Made by a program: the position numbers and the translations under genes | The notes under the pieces: model-generated | What the model saw: only the letters and a program-made list of their open reading frames with translations | What the model was told of the DNA's origin: nothing | Databases searched by the model: none | Virus record (IMG/VR): IMGVR_UViG_3300045980_000063 | Coordinates: 1-32,566 of that record | Strand: one strand, 5' to 3' | DNA from: a virus | Lineage: Duplodnaviria; Caudoviricetes | Length of the DNA stretch: 32,566 nucleotides | Part shown: positions 1 through 32,566 of the stretch, piece by piece | Numbering within the stretch: position 1 is the first letter of the stretch | How the letters are laid out: the number at the start of each line of letters is the position of its first letter

Positions 1-408
1 ATGATCCAGCGTACCCTCGCCCCGAGCTCGCTCTACATGCGGGGCTTCAACAACGCGATCCCCTCCGCATTGACTATCCGCCGCGACGCTCGGGTGTGGC
101 TGATCGAGGAGACCGAGACCGGGTTCGGCGGCGTCCACCGACGCATGACCTGGACGGACCGTCACCCCCACACGATGCCCGGCGGAACGCCTTTCATGGG
201 CGAGGCGGGCGCGCTCGGGCAGGTCGGGGACGTCTCCTACCGCCTCATCGGGACCGGCACGGTGGAGACGGTTGTCCACCAGCAGGTGCAGCAGACGGTG
301 CGCGACGAGTACGGCGACCCGGTCTGGGAAGACACCGCCGATGGGGTGGAAGAGGTCACCGAGCCTGTGTGGGTCCGCACCGGTCGCATCACGGTGGTCG
401 AGGCGTGA
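1..408 (+). CDS. Hypothetical protein, probably 5'-truncated by the window edge
   Basis: Open frame from base 1. Its TGA (406-408) overlaps the GTG start (405) of the recombinase (GTGA coupling). Confidence 0.6.
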   Translation: MIQRTLAPSSLYMRGFNNAIPSALTIRRDARVWLIEETETGFGGVHRRMTWTDRHPHTMPGGTPFMGEAGALGQVGDVSYRLIGTGTVETVVHQQVQQTVRDEYGDPVWEDTADGVEEVTEPVWVRTGRITVVEA

Positions 409-1475
409 AGCGTCAGAGCTTCCGGGGACGGCGCAGCAGCGCCGCCCCGCGGTTCCAGCCCTCCCCAGAGCCGGTACTCGCTCCCGTACCCGACCAGGGC
501 GCCGAGACGACCCCAGCCGCGGAGAGTGCGGCACCGCTCCCCGAGAAGAGCCGGGGACGACGGGCATCGACAGCGCGCGTCGAGCACCCGTGGGTGACCG
601 CCTACCTCGCTCCCTACGCGGGCCGCACAACCGAGAACTACCTCTATGCCCTCGCCCGCTGGTCCGCGCGGTGTGAGGCGGCGGGCATCCGCATCGAGGA
701 CGCCACGCGCCAAGACATCGAGTCCTGGCGCGCAGAGATGACCGAGGCCGGGTGTGGCCCGCGCACGATCCGCTCGATACTGACCCCCGTGCGCGGCCTC
801 TACCGGTACGCGATCGAGGAAGGCTACCTGGATCGCGACCCCTCCGCGCTCGTGCGCCTGCCGCGCACACCACGCACCTCTGCCCGCTCCTGGCTGCATC
901 CCGACGACCTGCTGCAACTACTGGACTACGCCAGCGCGCACGCCGACCCTGCAACCAGTGCGATGCTCCACCTGCACGGCCTGTGCGGCACACGCCCCGG
1001 AGAGACCCGCCGCATCGACGTCAGGGACATCGCCGGGTACGGGTCCCGGACGGCCCTCGCGCTCCGCCACCGGAAAGAGGGGGCCTCCGACCGCATCACC
1101 GTCTCGCCGCGCGTGGCCGGCGAGCTCGCCCGCGCGATCGCCGACCGCCGTACCGGGCCGCTGCTGCTCAACGCCGCCGGCGACCGGATCGACAAGAGCC
1201 AGGCCCGCGAGCGCGTGCAGAAGATCGTCCGAGCCTCCGGTGTCCCGCACGTCACCCCCTACGGTCTCCGCACCGGGTTCATCATCATCGCGCTATCCGC
1301 GGGCGTGCCCGAACGCGAGGTCATGCACTACGTCGGCCACACCACGAGCTCGCAGACGGCATACTATGACCGCCTCCGCACCACGATCGACTCCGCGGCC
1401 AGCAGCACTGTCGCCGACCACATCGCCGCCGGCACGTCGCGGTACGATCAGACCGCCCGGCCGACGCCGGGATGA
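405..1475 (+). CDS. Tyrosine recombinase/integrase (XerC/D-like)
   Basis: SAM-like N-terminal region (RTTENYLYALARW...RGLYRYAIEEGYLDRDP). Catalytic motifs GTRPGE (R), HRKEG (K), TPYGLR (HxxR with H replaced by Y), VGH...TAYY (H, Y). Start reassigned to the GTG at 405. Confidence 0.88.
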   Translation: MKRQSFRGRRSSAAPRFQPSPEPVLAPVPDQGAETTPAAESAAPLPEKSRGRRASTARVEHPWVTAYLAPYAGRTTENYLYALARWSARCEAAGIRIEDATRQDIESWRAEMTEAGCGPRTIRSILTPVRGLYRYAIEEGYLDRDPSALVRLPRTPRTSARSWLHPDDLLQLLDYASAHADPATSAMLHLHGLCGTRPGETRRIDVRDIAGYGSRTALALRHRKEGASDRITVSPRVAGELARAIADRRTGPLLLNAAGDRIDKSQARERVQKIVRASGVPHVTPYGLRTGFIIIALSAGVPEREVMHYVGHTTSSQTAYYDRLRTTIDSAASSTVADHIAAGTSRYDQTARPTPG

Positions 1476-1541
1476 TCCGAGTGTGGCGTACGGTTCCGCT
1501 GCGCGCCGGTCAGCTCCCCGCTCCCGCGCGGGGATGATCCC
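1451..1541 (+). CRISPR. Candidate type I-E-like CRISPR mini-array (repeat, 31-nt spacer, repeat), no cas genes in window
   Basis: R1 1451-1479 GACCG-CCCGGC-CGAC-GCCGGG-ATGATCCG (29 nt). Spacer 1480-1510. R2 1511-1541 CAGCT-CCCCGC-TCCCGC-GCGGGG-ATGATCCC. Both follow the I-E repeat layout of 5 nt, 6-bp stem, loop, 8-nt handle. Confidence 0.6.
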
Positions 1542-1565
1542 ACCGTCACGCGCGTGCACGACGAA

Positions 1566-1627
1566 ACCGCCCCTCCCGGGGAGCTCGCCGCCATGATGGC
1601 GTCGGAAGCTCACCCAGGAGGGGCGGT
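1566..1627. terminator. Long inverted repeat between convergent genes, probable bidirectional terminator
   Basis: ACCGCCCCTCC (1566-1576) pairs with GGAGGGGCGGT (1617-1627), with further internal pairing. Confidence 0.6.
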
Positions 1628-1632
1628 AGTGA

Positions 1633-3549
1633 TCAGGCTGGGACCGTGATGATGAGGTCGTCCACCTCGTAGTTGGCCGACGCGCCGACCGCGAAGGCGG
1701 CGAACCCGGGCGCCTCGTTCACGGCAGCGGCCGTACCGATGATCTCGCCGTTCTTCAGCCACTCCACCAGGTCACCGAGCACGCGATACCCGATGCGGTC
1801 GCCGGGCACCCATGTCCCACCGATGTTGAGGGTCCCGTCGGGGTTGATCACCAGAGGGTTCCCGGTTCCACCGCTGATCGCCGAGCGCCGAGCTATGACC
1901 TGGATGGATCCGCCAGTGACGCTCAGCACCCTCACCGAGAGACCGTAGTCCGGTTGGGGCATGGGGATGCCGAGGACGCCTGACGCGCCGCCCGAGGACC
2001 GGGACAGGCGACCTTCGGCGATGTTCCAGTAGGAGGAGAACGGCGAGGTGGGGACGGCCGAAGCCGTTCCGCCGAGAGCGTTGTTCAGCGTCCGACCGAC
2101 CGCGGTTCCGTCAGGCGGGGAGAAGTCGTCAGACGCCCAAACCACCCAGTCCGGCTCCACCGGGGGCGAACCCTCTGGCCACTCGGCCCAGCCGAACTCG
2201 ACCAGGCGCTCCATGACGAACCGCGCAACGAGCTGGCTCCCTACGGGGTTGAGATGCACGTTGTCGGTGCGGAGCGAAGTGGGAACCGTGTCCGCAGCGA
2301 TGTCCGTCTGGTCCTGCGCGGTCGGGGTGATGCCAGCCACCGCCAGACCGTAGTCGATCAGAGCCCGGCGCACGTTGACGAATCGGCGCCCGTAGAGGGC
2401 AGCCTGCCTGGCCTCCAGCGCCAGCACAGACGTGTGAGCCGACGTCCCGGCACCCTCGTTCAGGGCATTGACCACGCCGAGCACAAGGTAGCGAGGCTTC
2501 GCCGGGGCGAGAGCTCCGATCGCAGACTGGACGTCCTCCATGATGCGATCGGTCTGAGCGAGGTTGTTCCGTCCCAGCCAGAAGATCGACGTCCAGTTCC
2601 CGTACACCTCACGAGCCGCCGGGATCAGCGGCACGGGGTAGAGCGGGGCCGGAACGGCGGTACCGGGCACCGAGCGAGTGAACACGTACCGAGAGGATGC
2701 GGCAGACCAGGAGAACGTGCCCTGGACGCCGAGAACGATCGCAGGGTTCATGCCCCTGTTGCCCTGCTTCATCAACGTCGAAGTCTCCACGCCGCCGGAA
2801 GTGCGCGGCGTGACGAACACTGGCCCCGATGCGGGAATCTGGCCACCATCGAAGGACAGCAGGATAGGGTTGCCGCCCTGCCGGGCCGCGATGTCGTACG
2901 ACCTCTCGCCACCCACGCCCGCCCCGTACACGTTGAGACCGCTCAGGTCCGCCAGTGCAGCCGGGTACGCGGAGGCCGTCATCGAGTCGCCCCAGCAGAC
3001 CACATCGGAGGAGGAATCGATGGAGGCCTGCACCTCGACAACCGCGTGTTCCGCACGGACCGCTGCCGCCTCGGCGGCGAGCCGATCCTCGCTGGACACC
3101 ACGACCGTCACGCCAGGTGCCGGGTTCGTGGGAACGAGCTTGGCGAGGTCGACGGTGTCCCCGTTGGGAACATCGAACGTCGGAAGCACCGGCTGCTGCT
3201 CGACGCCTTCGAGCTTGACGATCGCCTTGTACTGCGCTCGGTTCGGCTCAGCGTGCGGCTGCTCGGTTGCAGGCACCCACACGCCGGGCGTCGGCGGCAG
3301 ATTGTCCCGAGTGGTGCCCGGCGGGTAGATGTCGCCGTCGATGATCGGGCACACGTGCCGCCCGGCGACAGCAGTGCGCGGCTTCGTGATCCCGGGGTAT
3401 CGCACGACGGGCTGCGTGGACATGATCGTGATGGTGCCCTGCAGCGGCACCTCGTCGGGGCGGTTGCCGGGGTCGGGACCGTCAGCGATGTCGGAGACGA
3501 AGAACCCAACGATACGACCCGCCCCGACCTCAGCGGGAACGTCAGCCAT
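1633..3549 (-). CDS. Tail-associated protein with SGNH/GDSL hydrolase domain and a C-terminal beta-sandwich-like region
   Basis: SGNH blocks CWGDSMT, GVGG, GRNN, DNVH. N-terminus resembles actinophage minor tail anchor regions. Confidence 0.75.
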   Translation of the reverse strand: MADVPAEVGAGRIVGFFVSDIADGPDPGNRPDEVPLQGTITIMSTQPVVRYPGITKPRTAVAGRHVCPIIDGDIYPPGTTRDNLPPTPGVWVPATEQPHAEPNRAQYKAIVKLEGVEQQPVLPTFDVPNGDTVDLAKLVPTNPAPGVTVVVSSEDRLAAEAAAVRAEHAVVEVQASIDSSSDVVCWGDSMTASAYPAALADLSGLNVYGAGVGGERSYDIAARQGGNPILLSFDGGQIPASGPVFVTPRTSGGVETSTLMKQGNRGMNPAIVLGVQGTFSWSAASSRYVFTRSVPGTAVPAPLYPVPLIPAAREVYGNWTSIFWLGRNNLAQTDRIMEDVQSAIGALAPAKPRYLVLGVVNALNEGAGTSAHTSVLALEARQAALYGRRFVNVRRALIDYGLAVAGITPTAQDQTDIAADTVPTSLRTDNVHLNPVGSQLVARFVMERLVEFGWAEWPEGSPPVEPDWVVWASDDFSPPDGTAVGRTLNNALGGTASAVPTSPFSSYWNIAEGRLSRSSGGASGVLGIPMPQPDYGLSVRVLSVTGGSIQVIARRSAISGGTGNPLVINPDGTLNIGGTWVPGDRIGYRVLGDLVEWLKNGEIIGTAAAVNEAPGFAAFAVGASANYEVDDLIITVPA

Positions 3550-3835
3550 CGGTGCTCGCCGACTCGGCGGTGGGCGTACTGCGTGGTGCGGATCCGAAGC
3601 CGATGCGCTTGAGCCAGCGGTCCACGGTCGGGATCGCGATGAGCCGGGTCAGAGCCGTGTTGATCGCGACGGCCTGCACGCCGATCGCGGTCAGCCATCC
3701 GGCCGACCACTCGTCCTGGATGATCGCGATGACCTGCGGCACGAGCGGCAGCAGAGTCAGCAGCGTCGTCAAGGCCGTGCGGAGGGCGCGCTGGCCCTTG
3801 AACCAGATCTCACCGCTGGCAATGGTGCGGGGCAT
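3542..3835 (-). CDS. Holin-like membrane protein
   Basis: MPRTIASGEIWFKGQRALRTALTTLLTLLPLVP..., two hydrophobic segments, in the lysis cassette. AAGGA RBS upstream of the ATG at 3835. Confidence 0.7.
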   Translation of the reverse strand: MPRTIASGEIWFKGQRALRTALTTLLTLLPLVPQVIAIIQDEWSAGWLTAIGVQAVAINTALTRLIAIPTVDRWLKRIGFGSAPRSTPTAESASTDG

Positions 3836-3848
3836 AGTTAGTCCTTTC

Positions 3849-4208
3849 TCAGATGATGTCGGAGATGCCGGTTGGCGGGTCCGGGATTGGCGCGTCGGGC
3901 GCGTGGCGGCGATGGGAGTCGATGAGCCGTCGGATGTACGCGACCAGCGACCACGACCGCTGTTCCTCATCGCGGAGCTTCTGCTCCACGGTGGTGAGGC
4001 GCTCGCGGGCGTCGGTGAGGTCGTCGCGCACCGACTTCAGCTCCGTACGAAGCGGCTCGATCAGCTCCGTGGCGGTGTTCGTGAGGGACGCGGCCGCTTC
4101 TGCGCGAGACTTCCCGCGCCCAGAGAACGCGGTGATGACTGCGGCGATGCCGGCGAGCCCGGTGAGGATCGCGCCGAGAGCGAGCAGGATCGGCGCGATA
4201 TCCATCAC
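3849..4208 (-). CDS. Membrane-anchored coiled-coil lysis-cassette protein
   Basis: N-terminal TM (ILLALGAILTGLAGIAAVI) followed by a heptad coiled coil. Confidence 0.7.
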   Translation of the reverse strand: MMDIAPILLALGAILTGLAGIAAVITAFSGRGKSRAEAAASLTNTATELIEPLRTELKSVRDDLTDARERLTTVEQKLRDEEQRSWSLVAYIRRLIDSHRRHAPDAPIPDPPTGISDII

Positions 4209-10233: not shown

Positions 10234-13200
10234 CGAACCTGCCTCCCCTGCACCACGCGACGCCGCCGCCGCTCCTCCTGCTCCGAGACCACCCCGGAAG
10301 CTTCCTGCCTGATCACGCCCCGAAGGGTCTCCCCGGAATCGAGCACGAGCTCGAACTTCTCCGGGAAGATCGCTGGAGGAGCCTCGACCGCGACCTGCAC
10401 GGGCTGAGCTGCCTGAGCAGCGCCCACCGGCACGCGCACCATCGGGCCGTCCCCGCGGAGACCGACAGCGGGGCTGTCGAGAAGCCGACGGAGCGTTCCG
10501 TCGGCCATGGCCGCGCGGATCTTGTAGACGTTCTCGTGCCCGCCGGCGCCCTGCACCTCGCTGGCCGCGTTCATGTGCTCATCGTTCGACGCCCACAGAG
10601 GCACCAGGTCAGACCTGGGGCCGCCGGGCCCGATGATCGGGCCACCGAAGGCCCGCTTCACGACTCCGACGTTCACCTTCGGGAGGGTGACCTTCGGAGA
10701 GTTGTTCCCGGCGTTCAGCTTCGGCTTGCTCACGACCGGCGGCTCGTTGCCGACCTTCACCTCGACCTTGAACTCCATGTCCCAGGGGTTCTTCAGGGCC
10801 TTGGTGATCGCGTTGACGACACGGTCCGTCTCGGCCTTCAGCTTCCGCTGGATCGCGGCGGCGTCGTTCTGAGCGGCCCGGATCTGCCGGTCGCCCTCGT
10901 TCTTCGCCGCACGGATTGCCCGGTCGCCTTCGATCGTTGCCTTCCGGATCGCCCGGTCGCCCTCGATCGTTGCCTTCCGCACGCGGCGGTCGCCTTCCTG
11001 CTTCGCGACCCACACGGCCCGGTCGCCCTCTTGCTTCGCGACCCAGACCGCCCGGTTGCCGCGCTGCTCGGCGGCGCGGATCTGCCGATCCCCTTCCGCC
11101 TTCGCGGTGTTGATCTGCCACTGGCCCCACTTCTCCGCGTTGGAGATGATCCGGGACGCCTGCTTCTCCGCGTTCGCGATGGCCTTCTCAGCCTTCGCCT
11201 CCGTCGCGGCGAGCTGCTTCTCCGCTGTGGTGATCGACTGCGCGTAGTAGCGGTCCGCGATCTGGTTGCCCGTCGACGCGGCGGCCTGGTTGATCGTCTT
11301 GTGCAGCGAGTTCACGTCGGCGACGTCGGCCTTGCTCATCGTGAGCAATGCATCGATCATCGGCTCGGCCTGATCGATGCCGAGCGCCATCACCTCACGG
11401 ATGAACGAGGCCGTGAAGCCCATCTGCCCGAGCCGCTTGATCTTCGACGCCAAGGCCTTCGCGGACTTCGCCTGCCCCCACAGCCCCGACTTGATCGAGG
11501 CCTTCGTGACCGGCACCGTCTCATCGACCTCGCGCTGCGACGTCGACGACAGCGACGTGCCGCCCACCGACTGCGACGACTTCTCAGTGATCGTGCGGGT
11601 GCGCGTCGTCGCCGTCGCGAGCACGCCCAGGTCGAACTTCGACCGGATCGTGCCCGCCACAGCGGACGCCATCGAATCCGATGCCGCGCGCAGGTCGTCG
11701 AGCTTCGCCGACGCCTTCTCGACGGCGGCGTTCCACTTCGACGTGACCTTCTCGACGAGCGCGTCCGCACGCTCCGTCGCGGACTTCACCCGCGCAGCGG
11801 CGCGCACCTCGGCCGCGTCGACGAGCTTCGTCTTCACCCGCTCCGCGGACTCTACGAGCTTCGACTTCTCCTTCTCCGCCGCCTTGACCGCCGCGGCGCG
11901 ACGCGCCTCGGCAGCGGCGACGAGCTTCGAACGCTCGCGCTCGGCCTTGTCGACGGCGGAGGACTTCTCCTCCTCCGCCTTCCTCACCCGCGCGGTCTTC
12001 GCCGTCTCGGCCTCGTCGACGAGCTTCGACTTGCGGTCCTCGGCGGCGCTGATCGCCGTCTCGGCCTGCTTAGCCTGCTTCTCCAGGCGCAGGAAGCTCG
12101 TCTCCGAGTCGCGGGCGATCTTCATCAGCCGGTCCCCGGACTTCCCGCCGGTGTCCTCGGCGGTCTGCATGAGCTTGTCGACGAGCTGGAGCCCGCCGCC
12201 GTTCATGCCCTGCTGCTGCGGCTTCCCGCGACGCAGATCCGTGAACCAGTCCTGCTGCGTGCCGACGAGGCGATCCGTCTCGGACTTCAGAGCCGACGCG
12301 AGCTGCTCACGCTCACGCTTCGCGTCCTCCCACTTCGACTTCCACTCCTTGTCGAGATCCTGAAGCCACTCCGCCTTCGGGTCCGCCGCGGCGCGGTGGG
12401 CGACCTCCTGCCACTGCTTCCAGACCGAGTACTCCTTCTCCACGGCCGCACTGTGCTGACGCTGCGTGTCCAGGATCCCGCCGTTCGCGAACGCGCGCGG
12501 CGGACCGCCCAGCGCCGTCGGGTCGAACGAAGCGAACCCGCCCAAGCGACGCACCGCTTCCGCGGCGATCGCCCGGTTCCGCTTCTCCTGGCCCGCCTTC
12601 CCGGAGATGTACGCTTCCCAGCGCGTCTCCATCTCGGCGAACTTGTGGATCGCCTGCGGGCGCCCCTTGTAGATCGCCGGCTGGAGACCGCGGTGGACGA
12701 CCGCACCGTTGGCGAACGCCAGCGCGCTCCCACCCGCGAAAAGGTTCCCGTTCGCGCTGCCGGGGAGGAGCGGGGTCCCCTGGTGCTGCGGGGCCGGAGC
12801 GATCCGCTCGACGATCTCGCGCATGCGCGTCGTGATCGTCATCGTGCGGTCTTGGATCTGACTGTGGAGATGGGAGAGTGCGCCGATGGCGGTCTGCACG
12901 CTGCCGTCGTCAACGACTACCGTCCCGTCAGGGAGGGTCTCCGTCTTGTACCCGAGCGCCTCGAGCGCCGCCATCAGGCCGGGGATGTCATCCTCGGTGA
13001 CGTTGAACTCGCCATCCGGCGTTGCGAGGATCTGGGTCGCAAGGTTGATCAGGCGGAGCTTGTTCGCGTCGACCGTGCCCGAGTCGTCCACCGCGAAGGC
13101 GACGACCTCGGGTGTGGAGAGCATGGTTGTGATGAGTCCGTCGACGGCCTCATCGGCGACTCCCGCGCCGGCCGCGGCTTCCCGCAGCTGGCCCTCGTAG

Positions 13201-29974: not shown

Positions 29975-30349
29975 TCAGGACAGGTCGACGCCGAGGCGCT
30001 CGGCGAGTTCGGATCCGGGGAGGTACTTGTCGCCGAGGTCTGCGACGCCGGCGCGCTCCAGGAAGCGGTCCTTCTCCTCGCGGGAGGTGAAGCACACGGC
30101 GACCCAATACTCGGAGTCGGTGGCGCGCTTGAAGCGGTTCGCTTCGGCCTTGGCGCGGTTGCGGTAGCCCTGTTCGAGCGCGGTCATCTCGGTGGCGGCA
30201 TCTTGGGCGAGGTCGCCGGTGTACTCGACTTCGGCGAGCGGATCGGGTTCGGGTGTGGCCTTCTGACGGCGGCCGGAGAGCCCGCCTGTGGAGCGCTTGC
30301 CGCTGCCGGGTCGGCGGGGCCCGGTGAGGCCGGAGGAGTCGCGGGTCAT
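29975..30349 (-). CDS. Partner protein of the PP-loop ATPase, function unknown
   Basis: ATGA-coupled to the ATPase. Basic disordered N-terminus, then DSEYWVAVCFTSREEKDRFL...DKYLPG. Confidence 0.75.
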   Translation of the reverse strand: MTRDSSGLTGPRRPGSGKRSTGGLSGRRQKATPEPDPLAEVEYTGDLAQDAATEMTALEQGYRNRAKAEANRFKRATDSEYWVAVCFTSREEKDRFLERAGVADLGDKYLPGSELAERLGVDLS

Positions 30350-31077
30350 CGGGAAGTCTCCATGTTGGCGCGGAAGAGTTCGAGGTCGGCAAGCGGGAAC
30401 CAGTCGAGGACGCGCTGGAAGTCGGCGGGGAAGTGCTCGCTGATCGGCTTGAGGAAGCGGTGGTCGATGCCATCGAACGATCGGCCGAACAGCTGGTAGT
30501 CGACGGGGAGGGTGATGCCGGCCGCGGCGATGCGGTCGCGGACCTCGGCGACGAGCCAGTCGGCGATGGGGGATACCTTGCGGCTGGTCGGCTTCATCAC
30601 GCCATGCTGGATGAACGATGCTCGGCGGACGATGCTGTCGGCGGCGCGGACGCCATCGGCTACCCAGGTGTCGGCGGGGAGGTCGAGATCCTTCCGGATG
30701 AGCTCCCACATGACGGCATAGTCGGGTGTGGGGAGCTGGGCGGCTTCGATCACCTCGCAGCGCTCGGGAGGCTGGAAGACGAAGTTGTTCAGCCACCGGT
30801 AGAAGCTGGGGTGCGGGTAGCGGTGGATGCTCTTGCCGAGCGCATGCTCCAGGTCGGTGAGGCCCTGCTCCACGAAGTCGAGGGTGTGGCCTGGCTCGCG
30901 GCCGGGGATGTAGTAGAGGTGGGCGAGGATGGTCTCGATGCCCGCATCCTGCAGGGCGAGCTCGGTTGCGATGGCATCCTTCCCACCGGAGAACGCGACG
31001 AGCACGGGGCGGCCCTCGGCGGCGAGGGTGTCGCGGATTTCGGCGGAGGTCGGCTGGCCCTTGATGATGGTCGGCAC
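30346..31077 (-). CDS. PAPS-reductase-fold PP-loop ATP pyrophosphatase (adenine nucleotide alpha hydrolase superfamily)
   Basis: VLVAFSGGKDA PP-loop, DGVRAADSIVRR (GxRxx[DE]SxxR), SPIADW. GTG start 7 nt after AGGAGG. Confidence 0.85.
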   Translation of the reverse strand: MPTIIKGQPTSAEIRDTLAAEGRPVLVAFSGGKDAIATELALQDAGIETILAHLYYIPGREPGHTLDFVEQGLTDLEHALGKSIHRYPHPSFYRWLNNFVFQPPERCEVIEAAQLPTPDYAVMWELIRKDLDLPADTWVADGVRAADSIVRRASFIQHGVMKPTSRKVSPIADWLVAEVRDRIAAAGITLPVDYQLFGRSFDGIDHRFLKPISEHFPADFQRVLDWFPLADLELFRANMETSR

Positions 31078-31079
31078 GG

Positions 31080-31250
31080 TCACGCCTCCTCTCGCGGTGG
31101 CAGGTAGAGGGTGCCCCAGCCCAAACACTCGACGCAGCCGGTGCCAGCGCCTCCGCATTCCGGGCAGTCCTGGGCATGCCACGCCTCGGGGTTGGCGAGC
31201 TGCTCCCAGTGCGGGCGAGGCAGGGCATTTGCCCACGCGGCGGGACTCAC
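31080..31250 (-). CDS. 56-aa DnaJ-type CxxCxGxG zinc-finger peptide (absent from ORF track)
   Basis: GTGA-coupled to the upstream gene. ...DCPECGGAGTGCVECLGWGTLY... Confidence 0.7.
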   Translation of the reverse strand: MSPAAWANALPRPHWEQLANPEAWHAQDCPECGGAGTGCVECLGWGTLYLPPREEA

Positions 31251-31810
31251 CGGATTGCCTCAGCGGTGCGGGCGGCCCATCCTTCAAGCGGCATAACCGA
31301 GACCTGCACTGGGCCATGCGGATCCGACTGGCTTACCGAGAGCGCGATGATCTTGCCATCCTCGATGTCGGCGATGACGCCGAGGTGGTCATCGAGGACC
31401 AAAGGGAATCCGGCATAGGGCATGCCGGGCTCGGGGATGATGAGGTCGACGGTGAGGAACTGGACGCCCTCAGCCTCCCAGAGCGCGAGGTCGATGAGGT
31501 CGCCCTGCTGCGAAGTCACCGGACGCCAGTCCATGCCGACGATGAGGGCTTCCGCGACCAGCCGGGCCTCTCCCGGGCCTGCGGGCTCGGACGAGGTGCG
31601 CCACCAGATAGTGGCGATGTCGCCGCCCTTGGAGCGGACCGCCCAGCCGAGGTCATCGATGTCAGTGATCTCCCAGTCGATGCCTTCGATGAGGAGGTGG
31701 TCACCGACGCTGTAGGTGAGAGCGCGCCGCTTGTGCAGGACGGGGCGGTCCTGTGAGCGGTAGATGACGGTGGGGGAGGGGGTCGAACTGAGGGGCGATG
31801 CGAATGTCAT
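31247..31810 (-). CDS. Hypothetical protein, first (leaderless) gene of the operon
   Basis: 187 aa. ATG lies 6 nt after the -10 hexamer. Confidence 0.7.
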   Translation of the reverse strand: MTFASPLSSTPSPTVIYRSQDRPVLHKRRALTYSVGDHLLIEGIDWEITDIDDLGWAVRSKGGDIATIWWRTSSEPAGPGEARLVAEALIVGMDWRPVTSQQGDLIDLALWEAEGVQFLTVDLIIPEPGMPYAGFPLVLDDHLGVIADIEDGKIIALSVSQSDPHGPVQVSVMPLEGWAARTAEAIR

Positions 31811-32445: not shown

Positions 32446-32566
32446 CGCTCGACCTCCGGTTCTCGTCATCCGCGCCGAACGCCTCGCGGTAGCTCTCCAT
32501 GTCGTGCGTCGACATCCGGACGCGGCGCTTGTACTCGTCGAGCGTGATCGGCTCAGCCCAAGACGC
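32438..32566 (-). CDS. 3' end of a hypothetical phage protein, truncated by the window edge
   Basis: Open frame ...WAEPITLDEYKRRVRMST...SDA* overlapping the next start. Confidence 0.55.
   Translation of the reverse strand, partial: ASWAEPITLDEYKRRVRMSTHDMESYREAFGADDENRRSSDA

Follow-up and report, generated by a model that had tools for sequence, protein, structure and literature searches.

Here we describe a small CRISPR-like element in a 32,566-nucleotide (nt) viral sequence, referred to in its full length as the window, which is a complete IMG/VR record (IMGVR_UViG_3300045980_000063) of class provirus with a CheckV completeness of 48% and a G+C content of ~70%. The element consists of two type I-E-like repeats around a single spacer, and it sits at the 3′ end of a tyrosine integrase gene, directly before a long GC-rich hairpin. 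It is very probably a CRISPR-derived mini-array cassette. With somewhat less than even confidence, we favor the fuller reading that it is a genuine, Cas-less I-E mini-array, packaged with its terminator hairpin as a portable cassette of ~180 nt and processed by host Cas6e into a regulatory or anti-CRISPR guide. Four direct observations underlie this reading: the anatomy of the repeats, the similarity they bear to an I-E array linked to cas genes, a homologous cassette in an otherwise unrelated phage, and the pattern of conservation between the two copies.

The first repeat, R1 (1451..1479, + strand), is 29 nt long and is made up of a 5′ flank (GACCG), a 6-bp stem (CCCGGC/GCCGGG) around the 4-nt loop CGAC, and the 8-nt tail ATGATCCG. 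Direct reading bore out the preliminary description, drawn from the sequence letters before any search, in each of these details. R1 covers the last eight codons of the integrase gene and its stop codon, and the TGA (1473-1475) does fall inside the tail, as had been stated. The spacer also has the 31 nt ascribed to it (1480..1510, + strand; AGTGTGGCGTACGGTTCCGCTGCGCGCCGGT); it begins AGTGTGGC, and its positions 1-9 read AGTGTGGCG. The second repeat, R2 (1511..1541, + strand), has the flank CAGCT and the stem (CCCCGC/GCGGGG) and tail (ATGATCCC) previously assigned to it. Its stem differs from that of R1 by the claimed compensatory swap, pair 4 being changed on both sides from G-C in R1 to C-G in R2. 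One detail needed amending: R2 is 31 nt long with a 6-nt loop, TCCCGC, and lacks the canonical 29-nt form. A trailer (1542..1565, + strand) then leads to the hairpin.

Type I-E repeats have a GC stem of ~6-7 bp, and their 8-nt 3′ tail forms the 5′ handle of the CRISPR RNA (crRNA), with the sequence AUGAUCCS in actinobacterial arrays. In both R1 and R2, the GC stem closes straight onto an 8-nt 3′ tail. A repeat search recovered the pair as a 34-nt direct repeat, 71% identical at a spacing of 62, which agrees with the I-E period of ~61 nt (a 29-nt repeat plus a ~32-nt spacer) and with the period of 61 in the reference array described below. The string GGGATGATCC occurs in the window only at 1469 and 1531. 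The unit was also correctly called Cas-less: none of the 30 window open reading frames (ORFs) scanned with PADLOC matched a Cas model, the sole match being a weak one to mad1 in a helix-turn-helix (HTH) ORF.

To gauge chance occurrence, we counted perfect 6-bp hairpins (loop 3-7) followed directly by ATGAYCC in the window and in 500 dinucleotide-preserving shuffles of it. The window holds exactly two such units, both in the R1/R2 element, against a mean of 0.02 per shuffle; one unit was seen in 10/500 shuffles and two in 0/500, so the element is no product of chance. In folding, the minimum free energy and centroid RNA structures both contain the two repeat hairpins and the terminal hairpin (z = -2.94).

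The origin of the repeats is indicated by the best public match to window positions 1465-1554, an I-E array beside cas3 and cse1 on the Streptomyces hygroscopicus plasmid pSHJG1 (CP003276.1). For positions 1440-1640, pSHJG1 was the only significant public match outside viral metagenomes; among GenBank phages there was no match by megablast of 1-4000 or by blastn of 1440-1640, and the exact R1 and R2 strings had no matches in IMG/VR. The pSHJG1 array is long, with the 29-nt repeat GTGCTCCCCGCGCCCGCGGGGATGATCCC ending in GCGGGGATGATCCC, a period of 61 and a duplicated leader-like sequence on its 5′ side. R2 differs from this repeat in the first two bases and in the loop (TCCCGC versus GCCC), and the two elements have in common the repeat core CTCCCCGC...GCGGGGATGATCCC, a period of ~61-62 nt and their orientation. 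From the orientation of the plasmid array, the + strand of the window is the crRNA sense, co-directional with the integrase gene. In contrast to the many near-identical 29-nt repeats, leader and adjacent cas genes of the plasmid array, the phage unit has two unlike repeats and neither leader nor cas genes.

We also scanned 2.9 million IMG/VR contigs for a degenerate I-E pattern (stem, loop of 4-6, ATGATCC). The motif is rare, with 45 loci found; since at least 20 of these 45 have a partner hairpin 50-70 nt away, phage-borne I-E mini-arrays are common. Separately, in three of the motif loci on different viral contigs (L011, L023 and L045), an I-E-like repeat precedes a short 'spacer' of ~26 nt that is similar among the three (...TGTTTCA......GGTTGA), and next comes a second hairpin that lacks the usual 5′ part. 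By their sequences, these loci look like another conserved crRNA-like family, possibly with a regulatory role.

One further motif locus (L049), on a 29,323-nt viral contig designated G001, carries a cassette homologous to that of the window with one extra repeat-spacer unit. Positions 1465-1626 of the window align with G001 26259-26097 at 89% identity (E = 4.5e-58), and the full shared cassette of mini-array, trailer and hairpin spans 1449..1627 (+ strand) of the window, the homology beginning at the first shared repeat and stopping just past the hairpin. On its - strand, G001 has the order RA, 32-nt spacer, RB, 31-nt spacer and RC, followed by a trailer and hairpin like those of the window. 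RA has the flank CATAG, stem CCCCGC/GCGGGG, loop CCCT and tail ATGATCCA; RB has the flank TGACT, the same stem, loop CCC and tail ATGATCCG; and RC, the orthologue of R2 in canonical 29-nt form, has the flank CAGCT, again that stem, loop CTCT and tail ATGACCCC (all - strand). Little else is common to the two phages. The rest of the window shares with G001 two stretches at 68-69% nucleotide identity, one 114-nt stretch at 100% and a few tblastx matches, and the 29 kb of G001 contain no homologue of the window integrase (tblastn, none at E <= 1e-3). The gene upstream of the G001 array encodes an XRE-type HTH protein and not an integrase. Together with the pSHJG1 array, this cassette supports the earlier call of a Cas-less I-E-like repeat-spacer-repeat unit in a phage, and it shows the repeats conserved in a second, otherwise almost unrelated phage.

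Because G001 shares the cassette but little else, the cassette moves, or is kept, independently of its flanks. The position at the 3′ end of a recombinase gene, which the preliminary description had highlighted, is real; the link to the recombinase is incidental, since the G001 cassette follows an HTH gene and G001 lacks a homologue of this integrase. By comparison of the two sequences, what is kept is the layout of an upstream gene end, a mini-array, a hairpin and convergent late genes. Each of the two arrays sets in at the upstream gene's stop codon and closes with the same hairpin, which fits co-transcription with that gene. As to the wider surroundings in G001, the region upstream of the array (L049 1524-2557, - strand) encodes a 122-aa protein with no family match and then the 221-aa XRE-type HTH protein, followed by the mini-array; a resemblance of this layout to acr-aca operons is speculative. 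The 114-nt stretch of full identity (window 32453-32566, G001 212-325) lies inside an HTH, MerR- or excisionase-like ORF cut at the record end and represents a very recent mosaic exchange or, alternatively, a flank common to both contigs; the neighboring DNA is unrelated.

Within the cassette, the two copies have diverged unevenly. The 8-nt handle after R1/RB is unchanged, as is the 11-nt 5′ part of R2/RC (CAGCTCCCCGC), which would stay in a mature crRNA, and the 5′ flank of the first shared repeat, which would be absent from the mature RNA, differs. The loops all differ (CGAC in R1 versus CCC in RB; TCCCGC in R2 versus CTCT in RC), while the stems all pair in both copies, with R1 having G-C at pair 4 where RB and every other repeat have C-G. 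Among six in-register repeats, 36/36 stem cells pair and R1 is changed on both sides of pair 4 relative to the five others; the R2 and RB rows were left out of this count, as MAFFT had put their loop-length gaps outside the loop and thereby out of register. The window spacer is 24/31 identical (77%) to the second G001 spacer, with changes at positions 9, 11, 20, 24, 26, 28 and 31 and none at positions 1-8. The trailer is the same in both apart from a 3-nt indel, and trailer plus hairpin together differ by that indel and two substitutions in 86 nt. Seed and stems have therefore been kept as distal spacer and loops diverged, the conservation described for regulatory mini-arrays, in a comparison of two copies that lends it weak support.

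The hairpin itself (1566..1627) is an inverted repeat lying between the convergent integrase and tail-fibre genes, and the interval 1560-1632 folds at -49 kcal/mol. The terminator-like hairpin proposed to follow R2 is thus present as a strong hairpin, and the features of a classical + strand terminator are not: the + strand has no T-run, a scan for consensus terminators found 0 sites, and a TTT follows the hairpin on the - strand. We consider it a probable bidirectional terminator. At 95.5% identity, window positions 1561-1627 recur in two further IMG/VR loci, L051 (2995-3060) and L052 (3000-3065), where the loop is GGTT instead of ATGA and no CRISPR-like repeats are present. Because the hairpin occurs alone in these loci, the mini-array is an optional insert before a common terminator, and the hairpin looks like a portable bidirectional terminator module of this phage group.

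Additional contexts are visible in the Logan contigs of four public runs, in which the region is split into short pieces (1455-1502, 1544-1590 and 1597-1627). In run X1, these pieces have depths of 24.4, 25.9 and 24.5 against 11-12.6 for the flanks, or ~2x. Record 20 of run X3 (1438 nt) has only 48 nt on the window and record 7 of run X1 (9176 nt) has 30 nt, both continuing into unlike sequence, and record 28 of run X4 (341 nt) spans 1455-1627 with other flanks on both sides. The Logan loop variant at 1593-1596 is that of L051 and L052. Another Logan variant is identical over R1 and spacer positions 1-23 (1455-1502), differs over 1503-1543 and corresponds to neither the window nor G001. An interpretation of the doubled-depth pieces as the core of an attachment (att) site was dropped, as G001, L051 and L052 explain the pieces better as shared modules. 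Contigs from RNA libraries also contain the region; contigs show neither transcription, RNA ends nor strand, and the parts they leave uncovered are uninformative.

We next turn to what the spacer might recognize. No protospacer was found in the window, in G001 or in the other loci compared. The BLAST of the spacer against phages that the preliminary description had proposed yielded none either, the best match among GenBank phages having E = 0.3 and lacking the seed. Searches of IMG/VR with the first 23-24 spacer bases, every sixth base left free, returned no match and self only. As the pattern searches tolerate few mismatches and the host virome is thinly sampled, these nulls neither support nor exclude a guide that targets a competitor. 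Regulation of the phage's own promoters was considered and set aside, there being no seed-anchored match of the spacer in the window, G001, L051 or L052. On pSHJG1 (L059, position 10273), 18 nt upstream of a CRISPR repeat and with GAA in front, there is a site that agrees with the first nine spacer bases when the sixth is left free; this 8-position seed match is at chance level (~0.4 expected, by estimate), and the plasmid is not the host.

The properties of the cassette are close to those of elements already described in prophages. Regulatory mini-arrays have been reported in unrelated prophages, with stem-loops kept as the stem sequence varies, and with identical seeds and divergent downstream parts (Shmakov et al., 2023; PMC10120712). 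For an I-E 'Cracr array' from a prophage, Cas-dependent processing, repression of casA and a lowered level of phage-targeting crRNA are reported, and candidate Cracrs targeting Actinomycetota systems are listed in the same study (Liu et al., bioRxiv 10.1101/2024.10.29.618823). As far as these reports describe them, such elements resemble the window unit in being Cas-less repeat-spacer-repeat units in a prophage with degenerate repeats and multi-spacer versions (as in G001), in keeping stems and spacer-proximal bases as loops and distal spacer vary, and in occurring in unrelated prophages, I-E examples included. The window unit likewise has repeat-like sequences flanking a spacer in a provirus (with terminase, tape-measure and tail genes), outside any cas locus, 0/30 ORFs being Cas. 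The likeness concerns the array sequence; Cracrs, as described, are defined by a seed-proximal match of at least 9-10 bp, with PAM, to a host cas promoter or to a host CreR/CreA spacer. What sets the window cassette apart from the reported Cracrs and regulatory mini-arrays is its 31-nt spacer (versus 21-24 nt in the validated I-E case), its fusion with a terminator hairpin, its position right against the upstream gene's stop codon and the lack of a recognized acr gene nearby. The unit is a real further case of this already known type of phage mini-array, the function of which we infer.

Under the regulatory or anti-CRISPR reading, the integrase mRNA would carry the array at its 3′ end, as the HTH gene mRNA would in G001. 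There is no room for a promoter of the array's own, and none is predicted. Host Cas6e would cut after each repeat hairpin and release a crRNA-like RNA of ~62 nt, in which AUGAUCCG is followed by the 31-nt spacer and then by 23 nt of R2. Once loaded into host Cascade, the guide would compete with host crRNAs and repress the host cas operon by seed-proximal pairing at the cas promoter. The host's I-E arrays would then be expected to have repeats ending in GCGGGGATGATCC. Transcription, Cas6e processing, Cascade loading and the target are what we infer here. As between the three roles that the preliminary description had proposed, namely a guide against a competing element, a repressor of cas genes and a decoy, the conservation pattern leans toward a cas repressor or anti-CRISPR. 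This role is favored because unrelated phages keep the same spacer, because drift has affected its distal part and spared the seed, and because the repeats are degenerate instead of freshly duplicated.

Several results weigh against this reading. R1 and R2 are only 71% identical, and I-E arrays typically consist of near-identical 29-nt copies with 4-nt loops, whereas R2 departs from that form with its 31 nt and atypical 6-nt loop. That loop may hinder Cas6e, as a 1-nt loop change impairs Cas6 processing in a published case (Liu et al., bioRxiv 10.1101/2024.10.29.618823). The 31-nt spacer is of ordinary length, against the 21-24 nt of the validated I-E Cracr spacers reported in that study, and no target of any kind was found for it. 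Rfam gave no significant CRISPR direct-repeat match: there were no matches at the gathering threshold, and the sub-threshold match of R2 to CRISPR-DR29 reached 14.2 bits (E = 3.6), with the gathering score set at 39, so that by Rfam alone the CRISPR origin would have gone unseen. No promoter-like site was predicted in 1100-1800. The covariation value of the stems was reached by 63/500 shuffles, and the compensatory swap is a single event and not statistical support. With two readable copies only, the contrast between seed and distal spacer is weak, as 7/31 changes would miss the first eight positions by chance in ~9% of cases, and the 89% identity of the cassettes may reflect recent transfer instead of selection.

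One alternative, which we regard as unlikely, is an offensive mini-array by which the prophage, in a form of superinfection exclusion, would direct host I-E Cascade and Cas3 at a competing phage or plasmid and destroy it, as shown for the mini-arrays of the archaeal viruses SPV1 and SPV2. In length the spacers are normal, with 31 nt in the window and 32 and 31 nt in G001, the extra, unrelated spacer of G001 is at the upstream end, where leader-end acquisition would place it, and most spacers in viral mini-arrays are reported to target related viruses (PMC11656645, PMC10120712). Mini-arrays of interviral conflict (Medvedeva et al., 2019, PMC6858448; PMC11656645) also resemble the window unit, as described, in having 1-2 spacers between repeats in a viral genome without cas genes and in relying on host Cas proteins. 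Their repeats, however, are reported as identical to those of the host and their spacers as matching related viruses, whereas here loop and 5′ flank vary between the repeats, which is unlike freshly acquired units, searches of the window, G001, the other loci compared, IMG/VR and GenBank phages found no protospacer, and the same spacer has been kept, in diverged form, in two unrelated phages. Very unlikely, in our estimation, is a decoy without a target, in which the hairpins would soak up Cas6e and Cascade subunits into dead-end complexes whatever the spacer sequence. Such RNA anti-CRISPRs (Racrs) are encoded by phages, imitate CRISPR repeats and are predicted to bind Cas6 and Cas7-type proteins, and solitary-repeat Racrs have been validated, including two of type I-E (Camara-Wilpert et al., 2023; PMC10651486). 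A decoy would explain why, within the unit, conservation is highest in the hairpins and handle and why no other long element evolves as fast as the spacer (77% identity versus ~95% or more for trailer and hairpin); the unchanged first eight spacer positions are not expected of one. Racrs are moreover solitary by definition, SRUFinder calling them as having no second repeat within 100 bp, and the window has a repeat pair 62 nt apart around a conserved spacer (G001 has three repeats), at the spacing of an array.

That the unit is an inert relic, a trailer-end fragment of a host CRISPR array picked up by recombination and hitch-hiking with a useful terminator hairpin, seems to us distinctly improbable. 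In its favor, the repeats have degenerated (to 71% identity, with a 6-nt loop in R2), the hairpin recurs by itself as a module in L051 and L052, and neither a target nor a promoter was found. Against it, drift in the loops has left stems, handle and seed intact, with one stem pair compensated, and two unrelated phages retain the cassette, which is also present in further contexts in the same samples. A role in recombination, with the repeats as attP or integrase-binding sites or as a homology patch for recombining into host CRISPR arrays, is hardly to be expected. It would account for the location directly at the integrase 3′ end, for the repetition of GGGATGATCC 62 nt apart and for the doubled depth and unlike junctions of the three Logan pieces, and viral repeats have been proposed to allow integration into arrays (PMC10651486). 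But the extra contexts are explained by cassette and hairpin as shared modules (G001, L051, L052), and the site is not linked to an integrase in relatives: the G001 cassette adjoins none, with none related to that of the window anywhere in its 29 kb, and the distant relative L005 has no such repeats downstream of its integrase. In the window, the integrase and tail-fibre genes are uninterrupted across the site, and the repeats match CRISPR anatomy in detail.

A bolder form of the regulatory reading, possible but doubtful, is that the 180-nt cassette is a self-contained, horizontally mobile RNA 'moron' that passes from one actinobacterial prophage to another, unrelated one and attaches itself to the 3′ end of whichever gene is upstream. 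Cas6e cutting would then both free the guide and trim a host mRNA, and the distal spacer would diversify to track variants of host I-E cas promoters, making the cassette a plug-in RNA anti-CRISPR for Microbacterium-like hosts. We know of no described case of a plug-in RNA anti-CRISPR for a Microbacterium-like lineage.

The identity of the host is hinted at by the VanY-type lysin, whose closest named relatives are from Microbacterium and Microbacterium phages (74-76% identity over 38% of the query); from this weak hint in the sequence, the host is possibly Microbacterium-like. An identical lysin is also recorded from a contig of 119,233 nt, which is presumably the one that the provirus comes from. 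A literature search for Microbacterium with type I-E found nothing relevant. The Streptomyces array, searched against plasmids, matched mostly Streptomyces among the genera listed, with 11 further genera unnamed, and is uninformative on Microbacterium. The public runs that contain window sequence are labelled ant metagenome.

The mini-array is embedded in a set of phage genes, nearly all on the - strand, including tape-measure, tail, lysin and large terminase genes. The integrase gene lies on the + strand and converges with the tail-fibre gene on the - strand, and the unit occupies the 157 nt between their ends (1475 and 1633) plus the last integrase codons. The integrase frame runs 3..1475, with the longest ORF starting at a GTG at 405 (405..1475, + strand; stop TGA 1473-1475). 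Its product matches the Pfam families Phage_integrase (8.7e-15) and Phage_int_SAM_1 and the phrog_1 integrase family (2.2e-34). A protein search found the relatives P0002 (68% identity), P0003 and P0004, which begin near residue 57-64 of the longest ORF when aligned. Because its first ~60 residues are missing from all relatives, the true start is probably at ~594, judging from this alignment, and 408-594 may be a promoter region. More distant relatives were the only finds in IMG/VR (28% identity; single protein, alignment A1), in the genome contigs of GTDB (a 21% Acholeplasmatales match) and in the JGI metagenomes, where the one relative, at 35%, is L005; no CRISPR-like repeats occur downstream of the L005 integrase.

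Upstream of the integrase, ORF1 (window 1-408, 135 aa), whose stop codon overlaps the longest integrase ORF (GTGA), has no match in Pfam, PHROGs, PADLOC or PDB sequences. On the other side of the cassette, the tail fibre or minor tail protein gene (1633..3549, - strand) matches the phrog_11419 tail fiber family (4.5e-72) and, by tblastn, tail proteins of Arthrobacter and Rhodococcus phages. Elsewhere in the window, a phosphoadenosine-phosphosulfate-reductase-like gene (30346-31317, - strand; phrog_2302, 7.5e-28) lies among early genes by the terminase region. Several families of 33-nt-periodic direct repeats (D1, D3, D5 and D13) lie within the tape-measure gene (10873-12058, - strand), presumably encoding 11-residue repeats of the tape-measure protein. 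ARAGORN found no tRNAs in the window.

Phage-encoded CRISPR-RNA mimics are a recently recognized means of counter-defence, and the cases tested are mostly from Proteobacteria. The points of interest of the present case are the joining of array and terminator in one cassette, its Actinomycetota and insect-microbiome setting, and its natural stem and loop variants. The cassette offers a natural I-E guide scaffold of compact size, whose tolerated variants (a C-G to G-C swap in the stem; loops of 3, 4 and 6 nt) could help in deriving the rules of Cas6e recognition. Should the host lack a I-E system, the case would still be instructive as a decaying, hitch-hiking array fragment. Read as a mini-array, it would extend CRISPR-RNA mimics to prophages of high-GC Actinomycetota in an insect-associated community, and a guide packaged with its terminator as a portable cassette common to unrelated phages bears on how anti-defence RNAs spread.

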